Shown here: in pieces, positions 1,916 to 46,303 of the stretch
Layout of the letters: the number at the start of each line of letters is the position of its first letter
Numbering within the stretch: position 1 is the stretch's first letter
Origin: Eledone cirrhosa
Lineage: Eukaryota
DNA: 64,000 bases
NCBI GenBank assembly: GCA_964016885.1
Contig: OZ024742.1
Coordinates: forward strand, 65,100,001 to 65,164,000
Direction of reading: 5' to 3'
Position numbers and translations under genes: made by a program
The notes under the pieces: generated by a model
Databases searched by the model: none
What the model saw: only the letters and a program-made list of their open reading frames with translations
What the model was told of the DNA's origin: nothing

Positions 1916-1996
1916 ATGGCACCACACACTCAGTCTGTTGTCATGGCAACTAACTGGGACCGACCATATTCCAGAGAAACAGCAGCATTTCCTGCC
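1916..1996 (+). CDS. GLDC: Glycine decarboxylase (glycine cleavage P protein), penultimate coding exon
   Basis: ttcctgaag|ATG...GCC|gtaagt; 81 nt, phase 0/0; [27 protein letters not shown] contains the GLDC/GcvP C-terminal W-D-R-P-Y-S-R-E-x-A-A-F-P motif. Confidence 0.93.
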
Positions 1997-2278
1997 GTAA
2001 GTACTTCATTGATGAATTTTATTTATGATTCTAGTGATTCAGACCTATGATCAAATTTTTGAAGCACTGTATCTTGAATTGCATTCATCATCATCATTGA
2101 ATGGCATTAAATATCTGAGGCAGGTTTTCTATGGACAGATGCCCTTCCTGAGGACATCTGTTACTGCTAATGTTCATTGAACTGCTAAACTGTAAGATGT
2201 GTTATTTATGGTGATTATATACATACTTCTTTTTGTATAAATGGTGACAATGTGGCATTCATGGCATCTAACATACTC

Positions 2279-2320
<42 letters not shown>

Positions 2321-2956
2321 ATATAAACCAAGCCAAAATCAGTTCTATATGAGCAAGACATGGTCATCTGACCTTGACTCAAACCTGTCTAATCCATGCT
2401 AGCATGGAAAATGGATGTTAAACGGTGATGATATATATATGTGTGTGTGTGTGTGTGTATATATATTAGGAAGGGCATCCAGCCGTAGAAAACCTGCCAG
2501 ATAGTCCTATACAAACGAGACATGGTCACCTGACAAATCTTGCCTCAAGTGTGACAATTCCCGTCTAACCCATGCTAGCATGGAAGATAGACGTTAAATG
2601 ATGATGATGCACCTCTTACAACATGCAAGGATGTGGTGTGCCTATTCTAAACTGGATATATACTGTCATAAGTGATGTCTTTAATGTCTAGTTTTTATTT
2701 TATTCATGATACCTCAACATTAATTTTCCATTATGTAGCAATTGGATATTGTCATATTTATGCCTTTCACAAGGGTATTTCTATCATCATCATTGTTTCA
2801 ATGATGCTTTTACTCTACTAGTATGAGTTGGATAGGTTTGCACAATAGTATATCACCCACTGTTTTGATCCAGTGTCATCTCTTCAGTAAAGCCCAATAT
2901 CATGAAATCTAATTTTACTGCAACTTCTTCAAATCAACACTGGAACCATTATACTC

Positions 2957-3145
2957 AACCTGCTTGAAATACCAGCCAAATATTCCTTAAATCACAAAAA
3001 AGAAGGATGCAGCAAATCTTTAAAAAGTGAGGACACATTCGATAATGTAGTTGAAGAAATTGTAAGAATAAAAGACCAGATGTTCATAGCCAGTTTATCT
3101 TTGACCATGGGTCTGCTAGATTATGGCTGACCTGAGGTTAAATAA
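2957..3145 (+). mobile_element. Unclassified dispersed repeat ending in (AAC)n-like tail (SINE/LINE 3' end)
   Basis: Motifs acctgctagaaatagcagccaaat...tttgatcataggtctgct...gacctggggctaaacaacaac recur at ~32110-32305, 37795-37950, 39063-39225, 53915-54070, 55300-55463 (+) and ~54405-54540, 55835-55985 (-). Confidence 0.6.
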
Positions 3146-3302
3146 TAATATTATTAATATATTAATAACTTCTTAAATACTCAAAAGGACCCTGATTGAG
3201 CCCTCAAATATTTCTTCTCATCACACCATTCATGCACCTCAGTCAGAGAAGAATCAATTTCTTCCAAAAGCTGCAAGAATTTGTATGTCTGTTTGTCCGC
3301 AT

Positions 3303-3390
3303 CATTTGTGTATTATTCTATGTACTATATTGACGAGTTGTAGTGCACCTGAGCACTTTACACAATAATTTCATTATTATTATTATTATT
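3303..3390 (+). mobile_element. CR1-like LINE extreme 3' end with (ATT)n tail
   Basis: ttattctatgtactata...gagttgtagtgcacctgagcac...caataatttc(att)n matches the 3'UTR of the longer CR1-like fragments at 48384-48708 and 52660-53031. Confidence 0.8.
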
Positions 3391-3607
3391 GAATGCTATG
3401 GTTGACGGAGGCTCGGCTCTGTAAGGTATTGTAAATTTTGAACACTATAACAATTGTAAATTGTTTAAAACTTTAACGAACTTGTAGACAAAAACACCCT
3501 CCTCCTCGTGAGAGGGGTCTTTCTGCCCGTTATTTGGCCCTTCGGGGTTAAATAACTGCTTATTGGGGTTTTGTGCCCAATATTTATTTTAAACAAAAAA
3601 AAACAAC

Positions 3608-5686
3608 ATGGCTACGAAAAAGAATTTTCATAGGTCACTCCCACTCATTCCGTCTTCTTCTTCCTCAATCATCACTACAGCAGAGAGAAGATTGTCTCTC
3701 TCCCTCCCTTCTTTAAATGTGTCTCTCTCCCTCCCTTCTCTTTCGCAAGCGACGACAAAAAAGAAAAGTCTCGTGCAAAGCGTGCAAGATTTCTCCACGA
3801 CGACGACGACAACGACGAAACAGGTGTGCGGGAAATACGAAAACCCATTTCATTCGTCTGACGTCAGGAATAATAGCAGTAGCAGCCGTAATAACAACAG
3901 CAACAGTGACAATGAAAACAACAGTAGCAGCCGCAACAGCATCACCAGCAGCATAAACAACAACAGCATTAGCAGCAGCAACACCAACAACAACCACAGC
4001 AACAGCGGCGGAGGCAGTAGTCATAGTACCTGCAGCAACAACAAAAGTAACAGCAGCTCTGACGACAACAACAACAACAGCAGCAAAGAAAAACCAATCT
4101 CGTTTGCAGGTATCGCGAAGAACCTGGAAACAATCCTCATAACAAATGAGGAATTAGAGGAAGCGAAGAAGATGGTGACAAAAACTGGACACCAAGCAAT
4201 CTGCAAGGCAGCGGAAAAATTTTTAGAAACCTAACAGCACTGTACGGTCACGTACCGTACAGTAAGTACAAAATCCCGTAGGGTTGAAAGAGCCACAGAG
4301 GCTCAAATACAAAAAGCCTTGGGGTCTGTGTGGCAGCGGAAAACGCACATCACCCGAGGCAAAAAATATGCCACCGTAGACGTACTTTATGCCACACCCC
4401 AGGAGGCAAAGGCTCAATCCGTAGTGACCCTAAGGAGCGAGGAAATGGTGTTGGTGCCCTCCTACTGCGGGTAAAAAATTGTGAGGGTCAAACTGACCCA
4501 CGTCCTCCCCGGGATGGCCCCTTCTTGGCTGGCCGCGTCTGTCCTCGTCGGAATCGAGGACAAAACAACTGTACTGCAAGTACAGAAAAAAGTAAGAGAA
4601 GATTGGGTCGGCACCTCCATTGAGATGTTAATCCAAACCAACCAGGAGTGCATCGAAGCTATCACGGATGTGATAGACTTCGATAACGGCACTCAACTGC
4701 CCATAAGTGTTGAGGGCAAACGCCCGAAATGCTTTTGCTGTGGATCGAAGACTCACCTCAGGGCCTTCTGCAACGAGAAAACCCTGAGAAAGGAGAAAAC
4801 CCCCCTCCTTCCGAAACCGGCTCCACGGCTACCAGCAACAGAACAAGCGGCAACCAGGAACGATAGGTCCGTGGCACCCATACCCACGCCACGGAAATCA
4901 AAAACAGCAGCAGCAGTGGAAATATTAATACCAAATGCAGCTGCAACAGAGAGTCCAGTGCAAACATCACCAACAACAACAAGTGAAAGAGTGGAGCTGG
5001 TACCCCTCCCCGACCTCACAGAATCAGACATGGAGTGTGAGGTGGGAGAGGGATGGCAAAAGGTCGTAAGAAGGCACAAACGCAGAAGCAGCGCATCGTC
5101 GCCTTTGAAAAGGGAGGAAAGAAATGAGAAAAGGGTAAAGTCTACTGCAAAGAGACTCACAGCAGCAACACCATCACCACCCACACTAGCACCACCATCA
5201 CCACCGGCGACAACCCCACCGCCAACAACACCTTCAACACTACCACCACAAGCACCAACATCGCAAACACAACAACAAAACACACACACCCAGCAACAAC
5301 GACAAGAAAATAGCGGAACCACACCCCACCCCCAGAAAAACAAATGCACGGCAATAAATACACACAACAAGAAACTAATGACTTACATAATTGAACACAC
5401 AGACATTTCACAACACGACTACATAATACCAGCACCAATCAAAACGCCAACTAACATAAGACTGATAAAAATAGCACAGAAACAATACACAAACATTAAA
5501 ACGAAATTCCCCAACGCAGTTGGTGATTTCAGGGACCTAGGAGGAACTATCAATCGAAGAGTATATTCGGACATACTCATAGAAGAGCCGACGACCAGCC
5601 GAAGGGACGATTCAACGGTCCCTTCACCAGACGATCAAGTGAAAAGGGATGTAAAAACCATCCCTCCTCTACGAAAAGTACGGTAA
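3608..5686 (+). pseudogene. Tx1 copy A ORF1 (gag-like, CCHC zinc knuckle), two in-frame stops
   Basis: ORFs 3608..4234 and 4481..5686 are in the same frame. Reading through TAA 4232-4234 and TAA 4472-4474 aligns to copy B ORF1. CFCCGSKTHLRAFC = C-x2-C-x4-H-x4-C. Confidence 0.88.
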
Positions 5687-5721
5687 GTGGTCTTTCCCAT
5701 CTTTTCCACTCTATTTTAAAC

Positions 5722-8700
5722 ATGACCTCACTCAGAATAGGCAGCATAAATGCGCGTGGATTGGGGTCGTCATGGAAGCAGGGTCACCTGCTCAACGACC
5801 TCAGGTCACTAAACATAGATGTAGTGGCCATCAGCGAGACCAGAATCTCTGAAGCATGGGCCTTCGCACCGATCTTCGGCGGCTACGATGTGTACGCATC
5901 TCCCAGCCGTCCTGGATCGGGGGGAGGAGTTGCTGTGCTTTTTCGGAGAGGTTTGGATCTCGCCATACGGGCCATCTTCCTGGACCCAGAGGGTAAGCTG
6001 GTGGTGCTCGACGTGACCAGCGGAGACGGGCAAGCTTTCAGGCTAGTGGCCGTCTATGCCCCGACAGGAGCAGGGCGGCCTGATTTCTTCCGGCGTCTGG
6101 AGACCTTTCTTGGAACGTCCCGCTCTTTAGTGTTAGTGGGCGACTGGAACGGGATCTTAGATGCAGGCTGGGACTGTGTGGGATTAGCGGATAGGGGTGG
6201 AGGGTGCAAGAGCCTCACCAACCTGCTCAGGCGTTTTGAACTGTCTGACAGGTACCGATTGGATTTCCCGAATGTGCCAATGTGGACTTGGACAAATCGC
6301 ATAGGGTCATCCAGATCATATCTAGATAGAGTATTTTGTAGGGAAATAGATAGGTCTAGCATAGGCTGTCCACAATTCAAGATAGTCAGCTACACGGACC
6401 ACAAATTCGTGATCTGTGTGCTTGACTTAGATAGGCTTCATAGACGAGGACCCGGCTACTGGAAGCTAAACGCGTCCTTACCAGCGCGCAAGGCCTACAG
6501 AGACCGGATTAGCGAACTAGTTAAGCGGGCGTTGACGGGGGCCATCGTCAACAAGTGGTGGTTTGCTCTGAAAAGAGCGATTAGAATAGAATCCATTAGG
6601 TTTAGTAAGACTTTAGCAATAGAGAAAAATAGAGCAGAGGGAGAATTAGTTAGAAAATTAGACGAGGCGCTTAGCAAAGGCTTTGCGACCGACGTGCTTG
6701 CGGAGAAATTGGCCCTTGACCAATTCTTCAATGCAAAGCACGAAGGCTGCGCTGTCAGAGCAAGGGTGCGTGCTCTCAGACACGAGGGGGCGAAAGCCGT
6801 TCAATGGGCTCGAGTGGCGGAGGTGCGTCGTGGCAACAAAGCCACGATCCGGTCTTTGGTGGACCACGATGGGCGCATGCTACTCGATCCCGGGCAAATG
6901 TGTGAAGCTTTTCAGTGACACTTCGCTCAGCTGTTCGGGGGCAGCGGTGGGCCGGGTCGAAGGATGGACTTTAGTGTCTACCTCGACGGACTGCCGCGGC
7001 TCTCGGCCACTGAGGCGAAGTGTTGCGAAAAGCCGATAACAGCCGCTGAAGTACGGGAGGCAATGACTGGCTGCACAAGGGGTAAATCGCCTGGTTTGGA
7101 TGGTCTGCCCTATAAACTTTACGTACAGATGCCAGACTTGTTCGGAGGCCTCTTGGCGGACGTCTACTGCAACTGGCAACAGAAAGGGAGAATTCCCAGT
7201 TCTGTGAGCCGAGGAGCGGTGGCACTTCTGAGAAAGGATCCGAACAAGGGGGATAACATAGATAATTTCCGGCCCATAACTCTGCTAAACACAGAGTTCA
7301 AGATTTTGGCCAAGGTGCTAGCAAAGAGGTTGGCGCTTGTCGTTGGTGGTCTGGTGGGAGTGGCGCAGACATGCGCAATTCTCGACAGATCTATCCACGA
7401 CAACCTCCACCTCATGCGATACATCGTAGAGAGGGTAGCTAGGGAACCTGGCACGGGTGGGTCCTTGATAAATTTAGATCAGTCGAAAGCTTTCGATAGG
7501 GTCGACCATCGTTACCTAGCGGCAGTCCTGAGGGCGGCTGGCTTTGGGCCCGTCTTCAGAGGCTGGATCGCTGCCATGCACAGCGACATCTGCTCTGTGG
7601 TGAGAGTGAACGGTCACCTGTCGGAACCGTTCAACATCATGCGCTCGGTCCGCCAAGGATGTCCCCTCTCGTCCCTCTTGTACGTATTGACTCTCGAGCC
7701 ATTACTGCACAAACTGGAGACGTTGAGGGGCGTCCCGCGCGAACTAGGATGCGGAAGATCCGTGTCAGCATATGCCGACGATGTCACCGTAGTGGTGTCG
7801 AACGCCAAACACATCGAGGCGATTGGCACTACACTAAGAGAATACGAAGCGGTAACAGGAGCAATGATCAACCAGGAAAAGTCAGTGGGCCTGCAGCTCG
7901 GCACCTGGAAAGGCAGGTCCATGCCGTCCAACAGCGTCGTCGGACGCTGGACGGACGGACCGGTTAAATTGCTAGGGGTCTGGTTCGGTCCGGACCTCCA
8001 GACGGAGAAAAACTGGGACGAGGTGACGAGCAGGGTGGCTTCTCTCACCCAGAAATGGGCGGAGAGGAAGCTATCCCTGAAAGGTCGAGCGGAGGTGGCT
8101 AACGCGTACATCGCGTCTGTCATCTGCTACCGCCTGACCATCGTACCTTGTCCTAAGCCTCGCCTGACTGCGCTGGAGCGTTTGCTCTTTCGCTTTTTGT
8201 GGAAGGGACGCGCTCCGATGGTCAGGCGGTCCATCTGTTGTCAACACCCGCTACGTGGAGGGCTGGGCATGCCGTGGCTGATGATGCTCAGGCTACGACA
8301 TCTCCACCTCTTCCTCGACGGTGATCAGGTGTGGTCGCCGTTTGCTAGACACGTTTTTCCCCAGCTCGTTTCCTTGACGGAGCTGCAGTCCTGGGTCAAG
8401 CGAAGACCGAGAGGGAGCGCCTGGAGACTGGAATGTCTTCAGGCGCTCACAGCCCTCGACCAATCGGGCAATGTGATCGGTGGAAACTCCACCTCGGCGT
8501 TCTATAGAGGATTAGTGGAGGGGAAGAGCGACGACGTACTTGGGGAAACTCTAGGCGTTGACGAAAACCAACTAGCCATTCTCTTCGGAAGAACTTTCGG
8601 GCCGGGGCCTATGGACAACTTCCAGAAATCTCTGGCCTGGCAGTGCTACCGAGGAGCCTTGCCAGTTCGGGATAAACTCTACAGGCATGGAGGTGCCGTC

Positions 8701-9126
8701 AACCGGGCATGTCCGAGATGCGCGCAGGGCAACGAAACCGTCCTGCACGCACTCGTCCAGTGTCCGAAAATTGCTGACTTGTGGGTTTATGTCGAACACC
8801 TGCTGTCGCGTTTAGGACGGATCCGGCTATCATCTGAGTCCATCGTGAGGATTGCCCCGCCCTCCTCCTTTAGCCGGGAAGGGCAGGCAGTTTTTATCTG
8901 CCTGGTGGCCATGGCGAAAGAGATAGTATGGTGGACACGTTTGAAAGGGCTGAAGACGAGCACTTACCTCTTCGGTGATGCTCTGATTGACTTTTTCAAA
9001 TTTCATTTGAAAAGGAAAATCAGAGTAGAGAGGGAAGTGCTCTCTTCCCAGCATTTTGTTGAAAGATGGGTGAGAGAAGCAAGAATGGCCCGAGTGAATG
9101 GGCCTACTCTGAGTATATATCTGTAA
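5722..9126 (+). pseudogene. Tx1 copy A ORF2: APE endonuclease + reverse transcriptase + C-terminal Cys/His finger; one premature stop
   Basis: SINARGL, ISETR, GDWNG, YLDRVF, TDH (APE); KSPGLDG, FRPITLLN, DQSKAFDRV, RQGCPLS, YADD (RT); CPRC..ETVLHALVQC. TGA at 6916-6918 where copy B has CGA. Confidence 0.93.
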
Positions 9127-9393
9127 ATTAAAGGTGGAAAACTGGGAGAGGGCACTTGCCTTGGTGGTCAGGGTCATTGTGGCTTTTTACTGGGCTTTCT
9201 CCACAAATGTCCCTCGGAAGTCTCCCCCCTATTGGGGAATTTTTCATTGTTATTTTTGTTACATCCTCTGTTTTTGTTTTTTACACGCAGAAATGCCCAT
9301 TTGTACCGTCCTGCATTGTCCTGCACTGTCCTTAATGTCTACTTTATGTAAACCCTTGTGGTTAATAAAGAAATCATTATTATTATTATTATT

Positions 9394-10453
9394 TTTATTC
9401 CTTGAATCTCAGTCATTGATGTTGGTTAACTGGAAAGTCCGTTGGATTGAATATCAAGCCACTACCTGCAGCCTCAGATATTCAGGACGTATCGGAGGGT
9501 TCTTGCTGTTCCAAGCAAGCATGCCTTTTGAAGCGTTCCAAAAAGCGTGAAGGGGCCGATTTTCTTTAACCATCCCTGGAAACTTTTGGAGATAGTCCCC
9601 AGTGCGCCTATGACAATCGGGATCACTTTGACTTCATGGCAGTTCCAAATCCTTTTCACCTCCCACTTTAGGTCCTGGTATCGGTTAATTTTCTCCCTCT
9701 CCTTCTCTTGCACTCTCGTGTCGAACGGGCAGGCCACATCCACAATCAGACACAATCTTTTTTCTTTGTCCACAACCACCAGGTCAGGTCTATTGTGTTC
9801 CAGTTTTTTGTCCGTCTGTATCCTAAAATCCCACAGCACCTTCACCTGATTGTTCTCCATCACCGCCTCTGGCCTATGCTCATACCATTTCTCAGAATGT
9901 GGTAAATTGTTTACTTTGCACAGGTGCCAGTGGATCACCCTGCCCATCACATCGTGTCTCCAGCCCTTATAGTGGGTCTGGGCTAGGTGTTTACACTCGG
10001 ACACAATGTGAGCCACAGTCTCCTCTCTCTCTCCACAGATCCTGCACAGTGGGCTAGCCTCCTCCTTGTAAATATGGTGCTTCAACCACTTCGTTTTGAG
10101 GGCCTGCTCCTGCGCAGCCATTAGCATTCCTTCTGTAGCCTTTTTGAGGTCTCCTCTTCTCAACCAGTTCCATGTCTGTGGATCTCTAAATTCAGTTTTC
10201 TCAAAGAAGGTACTATGAAGGGATTTTCCCTTAAGGCTGCTCTTCCTCCTTGATGTTATTTCCTCCTTGGACATCCCCTGGCCTACTGTCCCCTCCTTCA
10301 GTACAGTTCTGAGCATTGGCTCCTTACTATAGGTCACGTATTTGTATAGGTTGTTTTTCTCCATCTGAACACAGTCCTCTATGCTGATAAGACCTCTTCC
10401 ACCCTCAGATCTCCTTAGGTAGAGTCTATCGACATCACTCCTCTTGTGGAACA

Positions 10454-10455
<2 letters not shown>
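9394..10455 (-). mobile_element. 5'-truncated R4/Dong-like non-LTR retrotransposon (RLE type) with (TAA)n tail
   Basis: Carries ORF 9474..10454, a short 3'UTR with AATAAA (9394-9399 on -) and (AAT)n on both sides. Confidence 0.85.
9474..10454 (-). CDS. C-terminal fragment of R4-clade ORF (end of RT/thumb, CCHC finger, PD-(D/E)xK restriction-like endonuclease)
   Basis: DRLYLRRSEGGRGL; AAQEQAL; CRIC..ETVAHIVSEC; RHD; WDF..TD..HNRPDLVVVD; DVACP; EKINRYQDL; IPIVIGALG. No internal stops over 326 codons. Confidence 0.88.

Positions 10456-10502
<47 letters not shown>
10456..10502. repeat. (ATT)n microsatellite separating the R4-like element and Tx1 copy B
   Basis: ~15 perfect ATT units; similar tracts at 3373-3390, 9376-9393 and 16364-16396. 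Confidence 0.95.
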
Positions 10503-10710
10503 GGCGACCTACTTAGTAAATCGTATCATCGTGAGCTCCGCAAAGGTTTGTTATTTCCGTTTGTTAAAAATTGTCATTTATGGAAAATTTTATTGTTAAC
10601 TGTTTATAAGCGCACATACATTGTTTTCCGAAAAGGACACCCAAAAAGATTGGGGCCTTGTGCCCAAAATTTTAACTTTTATTATTATCCAAAAATTTCT
10701 TTGAAAAAAA

Positions 10711-12705
10711 ATGGCTAATTCCCCTCTGCACGAAGCAGCTGAAAGCCTTCCTCACAAAATAACACCTCACACCGACACCACCATTGTAAATGTTACTACG
10801 TTTGCCAACACAAAAAAAAATATAAGCAGTAGCAATATTTTAAATTTGTCTCAGGCAGACATTCATTTCCCGCCATTACCAATGACTGCAGGTGTTAAAG
10901 CCTCCACCACCACCACCACCGCGACAACCACCACCCCCACCACCACCGCGACAACAGAAACAAAAGAAGAAAAAAATAAATTAACTCGTGATGTCGAAAT
11001 GAAATCAAGCAAAATGGACTCTTCCGCACCAAAGACGAATGACGTCACCACCACCACAACTGAAACAAAAATTAAGATTAACACAAATAACGATAGTAAC
11101 AACAACAACAATGACATTATAAAACCGACCCTCAGTTTCGCCATCGTAGCAAAACAATTCGAAGCGTTCACGGTAACTCAAGAAGATTTAGAAAATGCCA
11201 AACAAATGGTAAAGAAAGATGGGTACAGGGTCAGCCTCACCCCCCCACCTAATAAAATGGAGCATCGGCGCCTGTGCACCGTGTCGTATAGAACAATAAA
11301 TGTAAAATCGCGCCGAGTGGAACGGGCATCCGAGTCCCAAATCCAAAAAGCTTTGGGACATGTGTGGGCAAGAAAAACCCACATCAGACGTGGGCAAAAG
11401 TATGGAACCGTGGATGTGTTCTTTGAAATACCAGAGGAGGCTAGAGAACACTCCATGGCCCCATTAAAAAGTGACGACCTCACACTCGTCCCAAGCTATT
11501 GTGGCCAGAGACTCGTAAAGATCAGGGTGACCCACGTTCCACCGGCCATCGAAATTCCCTGGCTAATAGCGGCTGTCCTCGCCGGCATCGAAGCCAACAC
11601 GAAAATAATAGCAGTAGCAAAAGAAAAGCAGGAAAACTGGTCTGGATCTGGGATGGAGCTCCTGATCCAAGTGGACCAAAAAAGCATTGAGGAGATCCCA
11701 GAGGTAATAGACCTCACTGACGGCAGCCACCTCACGGTAATTGTCGAGGGCAGAAGACCTAGGTGTGTCGTTTGTGGTGAAGGAACCCACCTAAGGGCTT
11801 TCTGCCCTCAGGCTAAAAGGTTGAGGCCACCTCTCCTACCCACCCCAGTGACACAACCATCAACACCACCAGTAGCAGAGATGGCAGCAACAACTGTAGC
11901 AGCAACAACAGAAGCAACTATAACAGCAACAACCCCAGCAACAGTAGCAAAACCAACACCACTACCACCACCAGCAAAACCAACACCACCACCACCCAAC
12001 GCTTCAGAACTAGCACCAGCGCCTACACCATCCACCACACCACAACCAAAACTAACGGCTGTGGAGGATTTTCCACTCCCCGGCCTATCACAACTGGAGA
12101 CAGATTGTGACGACGAGGAGTGGGAAACGATATCCGGAAAAAAAAAAAGAAACCAAAAAAGAAAAAATTCTCTTCCTTCCCCCTCCAAAAACAAAATACA
12201 GATGGAAACAAATAAACTAAGAAACAAAAAAGTTAGGACAGATATGCCACCATCCATACCAGCATCACCAACCCCATCAACCCAAACACCAACACCATCA
12301 CCATCATTAACTCCAACACCACCATCACCTACACCACAAAAGTCACCAAAATGCGAAACAGAAACAAAACCACAACAAATGCAAACAAAACAAAACAACC
12401 AAAACGATACACACTACACAGCATTAAATTTGAACAACAAGCAATTATTACACTACATCCAACACAACACCAGCATCACAGAAAAAGACTACACAACAAC
12501 CCCAAAATTCACACCACCTCCACACATACAAATCACTCGCATCACACAGAAAACGTACATGACACTAAAACAAAAATTCCCCAAAGACATCGGAGACTTC
12601 CGACAAGCACTCTCCAGGAGGATTTATAAGGACATCCCTCCTGAGGAGGCCACAAGCAGTGAAAAGGATGGAAAAGCCGTCCTTCCCCTACGAGAAGTAA
12701 GGTAA
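10711..12705 (+). CDS. Tx1 copy B ORF1 (gag-like nucleic acid-binding protein, CCHC knuckle), intact 664 aa
   Basis: Uninterrupted ORF; CVVCGEGTHLRAFC knuckle; EEWETISGKKKR basic motif; Pro/Thr-rich linker; homologous to copy A ORF1. Confidence 0.88.
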   Translation: MANSPLHEAAESLPHKITPHTDTTIVNVTTFANTKKNISSSNILNLSQADIHFPPLPMTAGVKASTTTTTATTTTPTTTATTETKEEKNKLTRDVEMKSSKMDSSAPKTNDVTTTTTETKIKINTNNDSNNNNNDIIKPTLSFAIVAKQFEAFTVTQEDLENAKQMVKKDGYRVSLTPPPNKMEHRRLCTVSYRTINVKSRRVERASESQIQKALGHVWARKTHIRRGQKYGTVDVFFEIPEEAREHSMAPLKSDDLTLVPSYCGQRLVKIRVTHVPPAIEIPWLIAAVLAGIEANTKIIAVAKEKQENWSGSGMELLIQVDQKSIEEIPEVIDLTDGSHLTVIVEGRRPRCVVCGEGTHLRAFCPQAKRLRPPLLPTPVTQPSTPPVAEMAATTVAATTEATITATTPATVAKPTPLPPPAKPTPPPPNASELAPAPTPSTTPQPKLTAVEDFPLPGLSQLETDCDDEEWETISGKKKRNQKRKNSLPSPSKNKIQMETNKLRNKKVRTDMPPSIPASPTPSTQTPTPSPSLTPTPPSPTPQKSPKCETETKPQQMQTKQNNQNDTHYTALNLNNKQLLHYIQHNTSITEKDYTTTPKFTPPPHIQITRITQKTYMTLKQKFPKDIGDFRQALSRRIYKDIPPEEATSSEKDGKAVLPLREVR

Positions 12706-12739
12706 GTGGTCTTTCCCATCTTTTCCACTCCTTTTCAAC

Positions 12740-15700
12740 ATGACCTCACTCAGAATAGGCAGCATAAATGCGCGTGGCTTGGGGTCGTCATGGAAGCAGG
12801 GCCACCTGCTCAACGACCTCAGGTCACTAAACATAGATGTAGTGGCCATCAGCGAGACCAGAATCTCCGAAGCACAGGCTTTCGCACCGATCTTCGGCGG
12901 CTACGATGTGTACGCATCTCCCAGCCGTCCGGGATCGGGGGGAGGAGTTGCTGTGCTTTTTCGGAGAGGTTTGGATCTTGCCATACGGGCCATCTTCCTG
13001 GACCCAGAAGGTAAGTTGGTGGTGCTGGACGTGACCAGCGGAGACGGGCAAGCTTTCAGGTTAGTGGCCGTCTATGCCCCGACAGGAGCAGGGCGGCCTG
13101 ATTTCTTCCGGCGTCTGGAGACCTTTCTTGGAACGTCCCGCTCTTTAGTGTTAGTGGGCGACTGGAACGGGATCTTAGATGCATGCTGGGATTGTGTGGG
13201 ATTAGTGGATAGGGAAGGAGGGTGCAAGAGTCTCACCAACCTGCTCAGACGTTTTGAACTGTCTGACAGGTACCGAATGGATTTCCCGAATGTACCAATG
13301 TGGACTTGGACAAATCGCATAGGGTCATCCAGATCATATCTAGATAGAGTATTTTGTAGGGAAATAGATAGGTCTAGCATAGGCTGTCCACAATTCAAGA
13401 TAGTCAGCTACACGGACCACAAATTCGTGATCTGTGTGCTTGACTTAGATAGGCTTCATAGACGAGGACCCGGCTACTGGAAGCTAAACGCGTCCTTACC
13501 AGCGCGCAAGGCCTACAGAGACCGGATTAGCGAACTAGTTAAGCGGGCGTTGACGGGGGCCATCGTCAACAACAAGTGGTGGTTTGCTCTGAAAAGAGCA
13601 ATTAGAATAGAGTCCATTAGGTTTAGTAAGACTTTAGCAATAGAGAAAAATAGAGCAGAAGGAGAATTAGTTAGAAAATTAGATGAGGCGCTTAGCAAAG
13701 GCATCGCGACCGACGTACTTGCGGCGAAATTGGCCCTTGACCAATTCTTCAATGCAAAGCACGAAGGCTGCGTTGTCAGAGCTAGGGTGCGTGCTCTCAG
13801 ACACGAGGGGACGAAAGCCGTTCAATGGGCCCGAGTGGCGGAGGCGCGTCGTGGCAACAAAGCCACGATCCGGTCTTTGGTGGACCACGACGGGCGCATG
13901 CTACTCGATCCCGGGCAAATGTGTGAAGCTTTTCAGCGACACTTTGCTCAACTGTTCGGGGGCAGCGGCGGGCCGGATCGAGGGATGGACTTTAGTGTCT
14001 ACCTCGACGGACTGCCGCGGCTTTTGGCCACTGAGGCGGAGTGTTGCGAAAAGCCGATAACAACCGCTGAAGTACGGGATGCAATGACTAGTTGCACAAG
14101 GGGTAAATCGCCTGGTTTGGATGGTCTGCCCTATGAACTTTACGTACAAATGCCAAACTTGTTCGGAGGCCTCTTGGCGGACGTCTACTGCAACTGGCAA
14201 CAGAACGGGAGAATTCCCAGCTCTGTGAGCCGAGGAGCGGTGGCGCTGCTGAGAAAGGATCCGAACAAGGGGGATAACATAGATAATTTTAGGCCCATAA
14301 CTCTGCTAAACACAGAGTTCAAAATTTTGGCCAAGGTGCTAGCAAAGAGGTTGGCGCTTGTCGTTGGTGGTCTGGTGGGAGAGGCACAGACATGCGCCAT
14401 TCCCGACAGATCCATCCACGACAACCTCCACCTCATGCGATACATCGTAGAGAGGGTAGCTAGGGAACCTGGCACGGGTGGGTCTTTGATCAATTTAGAT
14501 CAGTCGAAAGCCTTCGATAGGGTCGACCATCGTTACCTAGCGGCTTTGGGCCCGTCTTCAGAGGCTGGATCGCTGCCATGCACAGCGACATCTGCTCTGT
14601 GGTGAGAGTGAACGATCACCTTTCGGAACCGTTCAACATCATGCGCTCAGTCCGCCAAGGATGTCCCCTCTCGTCCCTATTGTACGTATTGACTCTCGAG
14701 CCATTACTGCACAAACTGGAGACGTTGAGGGGGGTCCCGCGCGAACTAGGATGCGGAAGATCCGTGTCAGCATATGCCGACGATGTCACCGTAGTGGTGT
14801 CGAACGCCAAACACATTGAGGCGATCGGCACTACACTAAGAGAATACGAAGCGGTGACAGGAGCAATGATCAACCAGGAAAAGTCAGTGGGCCTGCAGCT
14901 CGGCACCTGGAGAGGCATGTCCATGCCGTCCAACAGCGTCGTCGGGCGCTGGACGGACGGACCGGTTAAATTGCTAGGGGTCTGGTTCGGTCCAGACCTC
15001 CAGACGGACAAAAACTGGGACGAGGTGACGAGCAGGGTGGCTTCTCTCACCCAGAAATGGGCCGAGAGGAAGCTATCCCTGAAAGGTCGAGCGGAGGTGG
15101 CGAATGCGTACATCGCATCCGTCATCTACTACCGCCTGACCGTCGTACCTTGTCCTAAGCCCCGCCTGACTGCGCTGGAGCGTTTGCTCTTTTGCTTCTT
15201 GTGGAAGGGACGCGCTCCGATGGTCAGGCGGTCCATCTGCTGTCAACACCCGCTACGTGGAGGGCTGGGCATGCCGTGGCTGATGATGCGCAGACACGCG
15301 CTCAGGCTACGACATCTCCACCTCTTCCTCGACGGTGATCAGGTGTGGTCGCCGTTTGCAAGACACGTTTTTCCCCAGCTCGTCTCCTTGACGGAGCTGC
15401 AGTCCTGGGTCAAGCGAAGACCGAGAGGGAGCGCTTGGAGACTGGAATGTCTTCAGGCGCTCACAGCCCTCGACCAATCGGGCAATGTGATCGGTCGAAA
15501 CTCCACCTTGGCGTTCTATAGAGGATTAGTGGAGGGGAAGAGCGACGACGTACTTGGAGAAACTCTAGGCGTCGACGAAAATCAACTAGCCAATCTCTTC
15601 GGAAGGACTTTCGGGCCGGGGCCTATGGACAACTTCCAGAAATCCCTGGCCTGGCAGTGCTACCGAGGAGCTTTGCCAGTTCGGGATAAACTCTACAGGC

Positions 15701-16140
15701 ATGGAGGTGCCGTCAGCCGGGCATGTCCGAGATGCGCGCAGGGCGACGAAACCGTCCTGCACGCACTCGTCCAGTGTCAGAGCATTGCTGACTTGTGGGT
15801 TTATGTCGAACACCTGCTGTCACGTGTAGGACGGATCCAGCTATCAGCTGAGTCCATCGTGAGGATTGCCGCGCCCCCTTCCTTTAGCCTGGAAGGGCAG
15901 GCAGTTTTTATCTGACTAGTGGCCATGGCGAAAGAGATAGTATGGTGGACACGTTTGAAAGGGCTGAAGACGAGCACTTACCTCTTCGGTGATGCCCTGA
16001 TTAACTTTTTCAAATTTCATTTGAAAAGGAAAATCAGGGTAGAGAGGGAAGTGCTCTCTTCCCAGCATTTTGTTGAAAGATGGGTGAGAGAAGCAAGTAT
16101 GGCCCGAATGAATGGGCTTTCTCTGAGTATGTGTCTGTAA
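12740..16140 (+). pseudogene. Tx1 copy B ORF2 (APE-RT-finger), frameshifted
   Basis: Near-identical to copy A ORF2. 19-nt deletion (agtcctgagggcggctggc) between 14544/14545 with ggc microhomology; TGA at 15913-15915 (TGC in copy A). Confidence 0.93.
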
Positions 16141-16362
16141 ATTAAAGGTGGAAAACTGGGAGAGGGCACTTGCCCTGGTGGTCAGGGCCACTGTGGTCTT
16201 TTAATGGGCTTTCTCCACAAATGTCCCTCGGAAGTCTCCCCCCTATTGGGGAATTTTTCTTTGTTATTTTATTTCAACCTCTGTTTTTTTACACGCAGAA
16301 ATGCCCATTTGTACTGTCCTTAATGTCTACTTTATGTGAACCCTTGTGGTTAATAAAGAAAA

Positions 16363-16396
<34 letters not shown>

Positions 16397-16445
16397 TATT
16401 TTACTTGACATTTTTCAATTTTATTTTTCAATTTTATTTTTCTAG

Positions 16446-16613
16446 TCATTTATCAGAACAGACAATAAACTGTGGCCAGCTGTTGGTAGGATAGATGATG
16501 TCTATGGTGACCAGAATCTTGTGTGTACGTGCCCACCAATGGAAGTTTATGAATCACCCTTCATCAAAGAATCAGCCAATGAAAATCTACAGCAAAGAAG
16601 AGTGTCCAATTAA
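16446..16613 (+). CDS. GLDC: Glycine decarboxylase, last coding exon
   Basis: ttttctag|TCA...TAA; in frame with the previous exon; [39 protein letters not shown]...RRVSN* has the GcvP terminal W-P[20 protein letters not shown] motif. Confidence 0.95.
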
Positions 16614-27340: not shown

Positions 27341-27958
27341 TATATACACACACACACATACATACACACAATTACTACTGTGTGTAGACTGTGCATATCA
27401 TATGGCTACACTTAATTTTTTTTAAATCTTTATATTTATTTCAGTTCATTATTTCCACTCTTTGTTTCTTCTTTTTCTTCTTCTTTGTTTTCAACTTATC
27501 TTTTCCTATGAAGGTTTTTCAAGTGACAAAACTATGCCAGGCTGTGTTTAGCTGCTGGAGGAGCACTAGATGGAGAGAGTACAAGCTGCTTTATTGCTGT
27601 TTCTGTTAGGAGGAGATTATTTATATAAAAACAGGAGTACCAAAGATAAAAAAAACAACATGTAAGGACATCTGGAGGAATACTTCCTTCATTTTGTTGT
27701 TGTTGTTGTCTCTTCTGATACGCTAGCTCATATCTCACATCCAAAATATATAAAACAGGATACATATGTAGATATGTATATGTGCGTGTGTGTATATATG
27801 TTCATCACACAGGCACATATAAATGTGTCTAAGCTCAAAGGCAAAATACAGAGATCTTGTATTGAAATATTGTTTTCCTCTTTACATTTATTGGTCTATT
27901 TTGTCTCTTGTATATGTATGCCTGTATGTATGTGTGCATACATGTATGTATATGTGTT

Positions 27959-30242
<2,284 letters not shown>

Positions 30243-31015
30243 AAATACATGTGGCCTTGATTTTCCTTTTCTTTTTGTCACATTTTAGAAAATAAATGCA
30301 TGAAGTTGAAATGGTTTCACAGTCCATTGGTCAATGGTGTTTGGTTACTGTTGTTGTGGACGTGATGGTTAGGGAGGGGGCACGGTAGAAGGCGGGGAAG
30401 CGAAGGAAGCCTGGGTACAATATACAGGAACATGACCAGTGTTTGGTGATTGAGGATCTGAGATAGATAGATATAAAGATAGAGAGGCTTCTCGGTACTG
30501 TGGAATGGCATGGAAAGACACATCTTGGTTATCAGTATTAATATTATTATAATAATAATTAATTACATTCATTGTTATCATAATTATTATTTTCAGTGAC
30601 GAGTCAGTTTTTGTCTTCTCTCAATTCTTAGAAACAAAAAAAATCAAAAAAAAAAAATCAATAAAATGAAAGATTATCAAACAAAATGTTTTGTTTGATA
30701 AGATGCTGCTGTGGTTATTGTTTTGTGTAATAAGGCAATAATAATGATAAATTAACCACCCCAACCCTAAAAAAACCAACAAAAAAATTTCTTTTAAGAG
30801 AAAGGAAGAAAAATTTTCTAATAAAAGCTCCAGTTAACTGAAGCAGTTGTATTTGTTGTATTCATTATTATTATTATGATTATTATTATCCTTATTATTA
30901 TTTAATGTGGTAAGTAAAAAATTTGTTTAATTAAAAAAAATGTAACAAAAGAAAACAAATATACAAAAGAATGTAAGAGTATGTGTATGGGGGAAAGAAA
31001 GAAGGATGGGGGATG

Positions 31016-44594: not shown

Positions 44595-45105
44595 TTCCTG
44601 AGATCCCGCTACATCTCTTGTGTACCCATTGTTTGCATTTGGGGCAGAGAATGGAGTTCCTACCTACACCTTTCCTACATACTGAGCAAGGCCATTTCCC
44701 TGAGGGGATCTGGGTTCTGTTTTCTCGTCTACTTACAAGGACCTTAGTCTTTGTCACCCTTTCTTTCTCGTCCCTGCTTCCAAGTTTGGAATTTCTTATC
44801 TAGTTCTACCATAGATTCAGCTATAAGTGCGAGGTCATCTGCATATAGGAGTTCCTATGGGCATCCGGTCTTAAACTCTTCCGTTATTGCCTGCAGGGCT
44901 ATGATGAACAGGAGATGGCTAAGAACAGAGCCTTGGTAGACACCGACCTGTACGCTAAATTCCTCGCTATGCTCATTGCTAATCCTAACTTTGCTGACTG
45001 CTCCCCTATACATGGCTTGTACAGCTTTCACAAGCCATTCATCTACTCCTAGTTTTCTAAGAGCCCACCAGATTACAGCACGGAGAACTCTGTCAAAGGC
45101 TTTCA
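44595..45105 (-). mobile_element. RTE-like LINE RT fragment
   Basis: KAFDRV..IWWALRKLGV; VGVYQGSVLSHLLF; ELLYADDLALIAES; followed by KWPCSVCRKGVGRNSILCPKCKQWVHKRC. Confidence 0.85.
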
Positions 45106-46303
45106 AAATATTGAGAGAGAGAGAGAGAGAGACAGCTAGATATAGTGACAATTGTATATAGACAGGCAGATAATTATTGATAATCATTGATAAAGAAGGT
45201 TTTAGATATATATAGTTAGACAGGTATAGAGTAAGAATTATATGCATATACACCATACAATAATTAGATTAGTCTTCACAGCTAGACATAGAAACAGATA
45301 GAAAGATAGTTATACTGGCATACATATACATATATCTGATCCAGCTTCCCTCAAAACGTGAGGACTCACCTAACCCATGCTAGCGAGGAAAAATGGACAT
45401 TAAATAGTGATGATGATATATACGAATATATATATAGGACCAAGAAGACCACAGATCAGTGTAGTACTCATAGTACTCAATACATATGTAGATGTAGAAG
45501 AGAGTGGACTTTCTGTTGGGATTTTGCTACTTACTATGTGTATGAGCATATATATATATAGTGGAGAGTCAGGGCCCAATGGCTGAGCTCTTGCCGTTTC
45601 TCAACAGAAAATTCCAGAGTCTGGAATTTGTTGTTAAAACAGCAAGAGCTCAGCTGTGGGGCTATGATTCTCTACTATATTTACACTCTACTCAAGTATT
45701 GAGTACACCGTTGAATAATTGTCTTACTAGTTTAAATCTGATATATTCCTGATCCCTCTTTCTCTATACCACACTTTCTTCCTCTCCCTTTCACTCCCTC
45801 GCCTGACTCTCTAGTAGTCCTTTTCTCACTTATAACTGCTGGGATCAGACATGTCTTTTTTCTCTCGACCACAGTCTTGAACTTAAGTTGCTTGCACATT
45901 GCTCGGTTTGTTGTATTTTTCTGCTGTTTTTTCACTGTTTTCTCTTTTCTTCCCTCCCTCCTCTATTTTCCCAATAACTTATCCAGTTATTGACGCTCTG
46001 GGCGGTAGATATATTGTCTTTAAAGTGTAGAAATATCCGAGACCTCCAGTAGACAACTGATGAGGAAAACTCCCCACCCTCGTTCTTGCTTTCTTCTTAT
46101 TCTCACTCCATTTTAAGCTACCTTAAATAACAACTACACAGCCATTTCTACCTCTCTCTCTCTCTAGAGAGAGAGAGAGGTAGAAATAGCCTGGCTGAAC
46201 CGTAAAACAATAAAAGTAATTACAGAGGTGTTGTCTCCAGTGTTATGACCTTCAAAATTGTGAGGAACAAAACAAAGCTAGGTGTATTTTCATCAGTGAG
46301 ATA

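Follow-up and report, generated by a model that had tools for sequence, protein, structure and literature searches.

Within a 64,000-nucleotide stretch of Eledone cirrhosa DNA (assembly GCA_964016885.1, contig OZ024742.1, positions 65,100,001 to 65,164,000, forward strand; hereafter the window, whose coordinates we use throughout), two long interspersed elements (LINEs), A and B, carry closely similar second open reading frames (ORF2) and 3′ untranslated regions (UTRs) behind very different 5′ UTR–ORF1 cassettes. Our preferred reading, to which we assign a probability of about 0.72, is that an ancestor of one element underwent recombination, at the 3′ end of ORF1, with a distantly related element, and that both forms then became multi-copy families.

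By their sequence, A (3391–9375) and B (10503–16363) are classed as full-length L1/Tx1-type LINEs. Each has a 5′ UTR of ∼210 nucleotides (nt), an ORF1, a spacer of 34–35 nt, an ORF2 and a 3′ UTR with an AATAAA signal. The initial annotation covered 3391–12739, a span that holds element A whole; element B extends past 12739 to 16363. The two are dead copies, with ORF2 disabled in each, and the CpG ratios of their ORFs (0.64–0.89) suggest that they are young. The ORF2 of A also has two deletions, one of 12 nt, in frame, near 8289 and one of 3 nt near 6548. The parts of the elements are as follows.

3391–3607, plus strand: element A 5′ UTR, with hairpins and a 24-nt motif (3562–3585) common to B
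3608–5686, plus strand: element A ORF1 (A-type cassette, 692 codons), in-frame stops at 4232–4234 and 4472–4474
5643–5712, plus strand: switch zone in A, a 44-nt ORF1 tail 82% identical to B, followed by 30 nt, beginning at the ORF1 stop, without differences
5722–9126, plus strand: element A ORF2 (APE endonuclease, reverse transcriptase, zf-RVT), stop at 6916–6918
9127–9375, plus strand: element A 3′ UTR, AATAAA at 9364–9369
10503–10710, plus strand: element B 5′ UTR, shared motif at 10649–10672
10711–12705, plus strand: element B ORF1 (B-type cassette), open, 664 amino acids
12662–12731, plus strand: switch zone in B
12740–16140, plus strand: element B ORF2, 19-nt frameshifting deletion near 14541, stop at 15913–15915
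16141–16363, plus strand: element B 3′ UTR with AATAAA

Divergence changes abruptly at the end of ORF1

A self-BLAST yields a single long match between A and B (5638–9399 versus 12658–16387, 94.4% identity). In bins of 100 alignment columns, identity is 0.42–0.67 upstream of A 5660 and B 12679, and 0.92–1.0 from there onward through the 3′ UTR. The two ORF2s differ by 126 substitutions and 3 indels and encode the same amino acid at 1077 of 1128 aligned codons (95.5% amino acid identity), with a synonymous divergence (dS) of 0.092 and a non-synonymous divergence (dN) of 0.021; the 3′ UTRs are identical at 211 of 223 aligned bases. The ORF1 cores are identical at 97 of 180 amino acids (54%), their synonymous sites are saturated (proportion of differences, pS, 0.75), and their non-synonymous values are pN = 0.27 and dN = 0.34. 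Synonymous differences are found at 97 of 129 sites in the ORF1 core versus 72 of 839 in ORF2 (Fisher p = 3 × 10−58). The comparison of dS between ORF1 and ORF2 that the initial annotation called for thus yields an extreme contrast, saturation against 0.092. Saturated synonymous sites in ORF1 beside a dS of 0.09 in ORF2 imply that one end of the element was exchanged, and a faster evolution of ORF1 is insufficient to account for them.

An account without recombination, in which rapid change or positive selection in the 5′ half alone produced the contrast, is therefore extremely improbable. The N-termini of ORF1 do change quickly in mammalian L1 (PMC5872511), but here the synonymous sites are themselves saturated (pS of 0.75 versus 0.086 in ORF2), the ORF1 core is under purifying selection (pN of 0.27, below pS), and the transition, abrupt as first described, is a stepwise change within ∼50 nt. 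In addition, the nearest database ORF1 cores, at 35–39% identity by best full-length match, are about as distant as the nearest ORF2s (39–41%), which perhaps belong to different elements.

The position of the change can be narrowed. The last 44 nt of ORF1 contain 8 differences (82% identity; p = 2 × 10−4 against the ORF2 rate), and a tail of 82% identity followed by 30 identical nt places the crossover within 5643–5712. Near-identity had been described as starting from about the last ten ORF1 codons; a step near A 5660 is indeed present, while true near-identity begins only after a transitional tail, at the ORF1 stop.

Upstream of this zone, the two cassettes are homologous along their length, with the N-terminus marginal. 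The ORF1 cores are moderately similar, as had been noticed, with 50 identical residues of 80 in the best block (earlier counted as 50 of 77) and 47 of 100 in the next. The linkers align with a score of 170, reached by 0 of 300 shuffles, and the C-terminal domains are identical at 30 of 72 residues, again with 0 of 300 shuffles as good. The similarity of the N-termini was matched by 6 of 300 shuffles. A 24-nt motif common to the 5′ UTRs is identical at 21 positions, which 3 of 1000 dinucleotide shuffles reach. N-termini, linkers and 5′ UTRs had all been called essentially unalignable; this description has to be withdrawn for the linker and for the motif in the 5′ UTR, the N-terminus is a marginal case, and outside the motif the 5′ UTRs do not align.

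Both cassettes recur in public sequencing runs

Part of the stretch is present in 20 of 24 listed public runs, at shares of 0.08–0.75, with 13 runs at 0.28 or above. We aligned the contigs of four of these runs (X1, X6, X9 and X14) to it; the results below cover 40 of 1280 variant rows and 32 of ∼189,000 records. The A cassette is represented in X1 and X6 by dozens of variant contigs (43 and 34 at position 4232, 53 and 42 at 4389). All of the depth in both runs reads another letter at 4232, which indicates that the first stop of element A is private and that X1 and X6 lack this particular copy. The B cassette occurs in X1 as 15 contigs with one indel variant in common, and X6 has B-type contigs, ∼96% alike, at 10514–10921 (14 other letters) and 10931–12076 (43 other letters, 15 gaps). 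Pieces of both cassette types are found in X9. Finally, one contig of X14 (record 9, 5632–5856, 4 other letters) joins an A-type ORF1 tail to the same ORF2. An A-type ORF1 tied to a different ORF2 had been named as the observation that would speak against an exchange; the single bridging contig seen carries the familiar ORF2.

Contig depth does not equal copy number and cannot rank the parts of a gene, and arguments from it are hints. The depth of B-type ORF1 contigs in X6 is 160–285 and that of the B spacer (12720) is 267; the corresponding values in X1 are ∼200,000–260,000 and 311,000. B's letter at 6696 makes up 0.3% of the depth in X6 versus 21% in X1. Indirectly, the B spacer and B's letter at 6696 track the B cassette between the two runs. 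This covariation bears on the possibility that one copy, more likely B, is a one-off chimera, produced by a template switch as it inserted or by recombination at the locus, whose cassette resides elsewhere on another ORF2. LINE chimeras formed at insertion have been proposed as a route of ORF1 shuffling (PMC4120745), and none of the contigs listed bridges the B junction. Spacer depth and the letter at 6696 nevertheless vary with the B cassette, and the A junction is present in another run, which together make a one-off chimera unlikely.

The same A junction counts against an assembly artefact, in which collapsed reads would have given both cassettes one ORF2. Misassembly is a risk in high-copy repeats, and a single assembly was seen, but the two ORF2s are separated by 126 substitutions and 3 indels, and each has private disabling changes, leaving an artefact with a negligible share of the probability.

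Among the ORF2 variant rows listed, 17 of 19 read B's letter. Twelve of these 17 are nearly fixed for it in X1, and non-synonymous changes make up 9 of the 12, the pattern that decay private to element A would give; the remaining 5 rows are mixed, 4 of them synonymous. In X1 and X6, some contigs pass from one element into the other at a homologous Asn-rich tract just ahead of the ORF1 core (4080–4086 in A, 11094–11098 in B). These joints could mark a further crossover site, or mismatches within low-complexity sequence.

Selection on ORF2 and the case for one exchange

Between A and B, the dN/dS of ORF2 is 0.23 (bootstrap interval 0.16–0.32), which indicates that most ORF2 differences arose in active lineages. 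Decay after insertion accounts for at most ∼17 of the 72.5 synonymous differences in ORF2; with all non-synonymous differences counted as decay, ∼55 synonymous differences (dS 0.066) are left from active lineages. Synonymous differences are spread evenly along ORF2 (chi-square p = 0.72).

A dN/dS of 0.23 fits badly with local gene conversion, the alternative that the initial annotation had offered, whereby one of two unrelated neighbours had its ORF2 and 3′ UTR overwritten with the other's. The copies do lie 7 kb apart in direct orientation, and a substitution-free tract and two shared rare letters, described below, may be a conversion patch. However, gene conversion predicts neutral differences, with a dN/dS near 1. 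A 3.7-kb tract would also require the two sequences to have been similar beforehand, whereas the ORF1s point to parents far apart, and X6 has very many A-cassette and ORF2 contigs though B-type contigs are scarce. We regard gene conversion as very unlikely.

Beyond the limits of contig depth, several observations weigh against our preferred reading. A 303-nt stretch of ORF2 (6277–6578) is without substitutions (p = 0.0006 for all differences, p = 0.10 for synonymous ones). At 6610 and 6646, A equals B, unlike most of the depth in X1 (94% and 75%) and in X6 (>99%). These letters and the 303-nt tract are hard to reconcile with a single clean exchange, and would be explained by a second exchange between the families at a later time or by a small patch of local conversion. 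Runs X9 and X14 are shallow and perhaps do not represent independent hosts; a contig joining a B-type ORF1 to ORF2 is absent among the 32 of ∼189,000 records listed; and the searches made revealed no parent family in which one of these cassettes sits on another ORF2. Recombination at the junction, placing one ORF2 behind two cassettes as initially proposed, remains the best reading by the dS contrast, the dN/dS and the A-type contig; either cassette may be the newcomer.

A bolder version, which is possible and which we hold only tentatively, treats ORF2 as an engine common to at least two ancient 5′ UTR–ORF1 cassettes that would be repeatedly exchanged at a fixed crossover at the ORF1 end, the cassettes acting in the manner of old balanced alleles. 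Hints of repeated exchange come from the letters at 6610 and 6646, from X6 contigs of ORF2 that seemingly exceed those of the A and B cassettes together, and from the A–B joints at the Asn-rich tract.

Searches for relatives and parents

A HMMER search with the ORF1 core found 370 database relatives at E 0.001, with identities of at most 51% among the 150 listed, and a database search with ORF2 found 24 relatives. In a quick ORF1 tree of 47 rows (matches of at least 140 amino acids, P0003 left out), A and B fall within an unresolved group of 10. Metagenome contigs gave 0 matches to the junction pattern and 110 pattern matches for ORF2 relatives, 0 of them confirmed, and viral contigs gave 0 matches to the ORF2-start pattern. 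Word-seeded protein searches returned 2242 candidates for the B core, none at E 0.001, and 8 for the ORF1 tails, again none; accordingly, these searches revealed no third cassette or parent tail. Four database proteins (P0015, P0023, P0042 and P0120) have an ORF1-type piece fused to apparent host-gene sequence, and are likely gene-prediction errors or exonised insertions. In the literature searched, which excluded Repbase and most subscription journals, neither this family nor an exchange of ORF1 between Tx1 lineages is described; the families may be catalogued in the repeat library behind PMC13282606.

A proposed course of events

According to our preferred reading, two distant lineages would have been expressed in the same germ cells, and the exchange would have used the ∼44-nt ORF1 tail that is still 82% alike. 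Most likely, the reverse transcriptase would have switched templates from one RNA to the other during insertion; alternatively, two DNA copies could have recombined within the ORF1 tail. The product would have retained ORF2 with its own 3′ UTR and target choice, and gained a new promoter and ORF1. We would date the exchange to ∼dS 0.07–0.09 ago. Such a hybrid could be viable if ORF1p, a presumed general RNA chaperone with predicted RRM-like domains and a CCHC knuckle, need not match ORF2p; ORF2p and its 3′ UTR would have remained together. Both forms would then have kept transposing, and two copies would have met in one (ATT)n array, which the element between them would have used as well.

Architecture of the elements

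Pfam families PF03372, PF00078 and PF13966 match the ORF2 of both copies. Its best solved-structure match is human L1 ORF2p (E = 10−40), with R2 next (10−21), a coarse placement in which only these clades appeared. Features of the L1 group are present, namely a separate upstream ORF1, predicted RNA-binding domains, and the poly(A) signal AATAAA followed by (ATT)n, and no long terminal repeats (LTRs) were seen among the top rows of the self-BLAST. Both ends of both copies adjoin (ATT)n (2 of 2 copies, the only two whose flanks were seen); the published criterion for a Tx1-clade target is one repeat in >20% of a family's flanks (PMC4494074).

The ORF1 of element B begins with a low-complexity N-terminus. 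Amino acids 139–370 hold a CCHC knuckle and a predicted pair of RRM-like domains; they are followed by a Pro/Thr-rich linker and a small C-terminal domain without a recognised fold, for which the Atlas gave no match. The knuckle, C-X2-C-X4-H-X4-C, is found in the ORF1 of both elements. A model of the ORF1 core, folded on a 64-sequence alignment, has a pLDDT of 92 and two RRM-like domains; its best Foldseek rows are tandem RRM proteins (E = 6 × 10−5 to 10−3, low TM), and its VIA Z reaches 8.9, graded middling. The zf-CCHC domain is found in 10 of the 64 members of the alignment, and the Atlas neighbours of ORF1 are CCHC and ZCCHC3-type RBD clusters (0.91–0.93). RRM-type domains with a CCHC knuckle are the ORF1 type of Tx1 elements.

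The 24-nt motif of the 5′ UTRs could form a short hairpin 22–38 nt ahead of the ORF1 start, and is possibly a promoter or translation element. When six UTR and junction pieces were folded, only A 3480–3615 beat its shuffles (z = −2.4). An Rfam search gave 6 matches, none near the gathering score, and no ribozyme at the 5′ ends of the elements.

The junction also contains a splice-like signal: a donor-like GTAAGT at the ORF1 stop and an acceptor-like CAG after a pyrimidine run, bounding 5683–5735 in A and 12702–12753 in B (53 and 52 nt apart). Removal of these segments by splicing would fuse ORF1 to ORF2 in frame. The signal probably arose by chance, because it is short for an intron and because the alignments of 5 of the 6 nearest relatives of ORF2 begin with their own Met in the same position.

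The host locus

The window has a GC content of ∼37% and a flanking CpG observed/expected ratio of 0.16, and was read as animal DNA. Elements A and B lie in the last intron (1997–16445, 14.4 kb) of a host glycine decarboxylase (GLDC) gene, in the order (ATT)6, element A, (ATT)8, a minus-strand LINE fragment, (ATT)16, element B, (ATT)11.

1916–1996, plus strand: probable penultimate coding exon of host GLDC, an AG/GT-bounded frame in phase with the last exon
3373–3390, unstranded: (ATT)6, 5′ flank of element A
9376–9399, unstranded: (ATT)8, separating element A from the middle fragment
9400–10455, minus strand: 5′-truncated fragment of an unrelated LINE, encoding a zinc finger and a restriction-like endonuclease; its target and anatomy are Dong/R4-like
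10456–10502, unstranded: (ATT)16, 5′ flank of element B
16364–16396, unstranded: (ATT)11, 3′ flank of element B
16446–16613, plus strand: last coding exon of host GLDC, matching human glycine decarboxylase residues 932–972 (E = 4 × 10−18), with a splice acceptor

The exon at 1916–1996 is assigned to GLDC by a motif known from that protein, not by a search. That A and B are neighbours is likely explained by their shared endonuclease, which would direct both into (ATT)n, and not by tandem duplication. The latter is ruled out by the differing 5′ halves and by the intervening unrelated LINE fragment with its own repeat flanks.

The middle fragment gave weak matches to R2 proteins only, in the endonuclease region (E = 0.002–0.01), and its contig coverage is very deep in run X1 and thin in run X6. 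Dong elements are known to target TAA repeats (PMC3812793). Together, the three LINE insertions make up ∼13 kb of the last GLDC intron. Two of them have the orientation of the gene, and their poly(A) signals and donor-like site could disturb the host transcript. Elsewhere in the window are a 2.3-kb, very AT-rich simple repeat (27900–30250, GC 9%) that is open in many frames, and an old reverse-transcriptase fragment on the minus strand (44798–45121) with 30% identity to the ORF2 of element A.

Discussion

Exchange of 5′ ends between LINEs is a known process. The mouse L1MdTf and L1MdGf families carry the 5′ UTR and whole ORF1 of the F lineage on the ORF2 and 3′ UTR of another lineage, with ORF2 coming from A_III (PMC3600994). 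The initial annotation had taken coverage of the whole ORF1 as going beyond mammalian L1; these mouse families are already whole-ORF1 swaps. Their joint lies near the ORF2 start, whereas the switch in A and B is at the ORF1 end, and the recombinants amplified as families beside a parent (PMC3600994). The ORF1 cores of A and B, unlike those of the mouse families, are only 54% identical with saturated dS. For the horse, one recombination involving ORF2 has been reported (PMC5872511).

The mouse Tf and Gf parents are young branches of one L1 lineage, close to each other. At the other extreme, whole ORF1s have been transferred among ORF2 lineages of CR1/L2 elements, as inferred from deep conflicts between clade and ORF1-type trees (PMC4120745); in contrast, the swap in A and B is recent, lies between homologous ORF1s of one type, and still has a visible junction. 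Yeast Ty1 and Ty1′ similarly form one family with two forms of the structural gene, one acquired by recombination, although Ty1 is an LTR element whose gag type decides control and whose function was tested (PMC7055915). Unlike them, A and B are known from sequence alone, with no horizontal transfer shown.

In Tx1, their putative clade, A and B resemble Kibi, Koshi and the L1-Tx1 elements of Octopus vulgaris, with two ORFs, an ORF2 with endonuclease, reverse transcriptase and zinc finger, and insertion into simple repeats (PMC4494074, PMC13282606). Microsatellite targeting by the Tx1 clade is published; Kibi and Koshi use (TC)n or (TTC)n, (PMC4494074), while A and B lie in (ATT)n. L1-Tx1 and Dong-R4 have both been recently active in Octopus vulgaris, a pairing that we treat as a resemblance only (PMC13282606). 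The available portions of these Tx1 and Octopus vulgaris accounts do not mention a cassette swap (PMC4494074, PMC13282606). Like A and B, non-mammalian vertebrate L1 elements have short 5′ UTRs, with conserved motifs common to divergent families; almost no 5′ UTR replacement is described for fish, frog and lizard L1, and the arms race is called mammal-specific (PMC5381506). A and B, by contrast, show a 5′-end exchange in an apparent invertebrate. While the process itself is known, the present case adds parents that are far apart, a junction that can still be seen and, in a non-mammal, two forms that were apparently active side by side.

If the tentative version with repeated exchange were true, cassette success would flip between host species, with B-type plentiful in one run and scarce in another, and the exchange would point to control by an invertebrate host directed at ORF1p or at the promoter, which would make it the LINE equivalent of gag switching in Ty1 and Ty1′. 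For annotation, such LINE families are merged when reverse transcriptase is used and split when ORF1 is counted. Earlier cases of LINE ORF1 shuffling came either from closely related mouse L1 families or from old conflicts between trees. A swap that is recent and can be dated, with parental ORF1 cores of 54% identity and both products amplified, is a natural experiment; it bears on whether ORF1p must match ORF2p, and on 5′-end exchange as an escape from host control beyond mammals.

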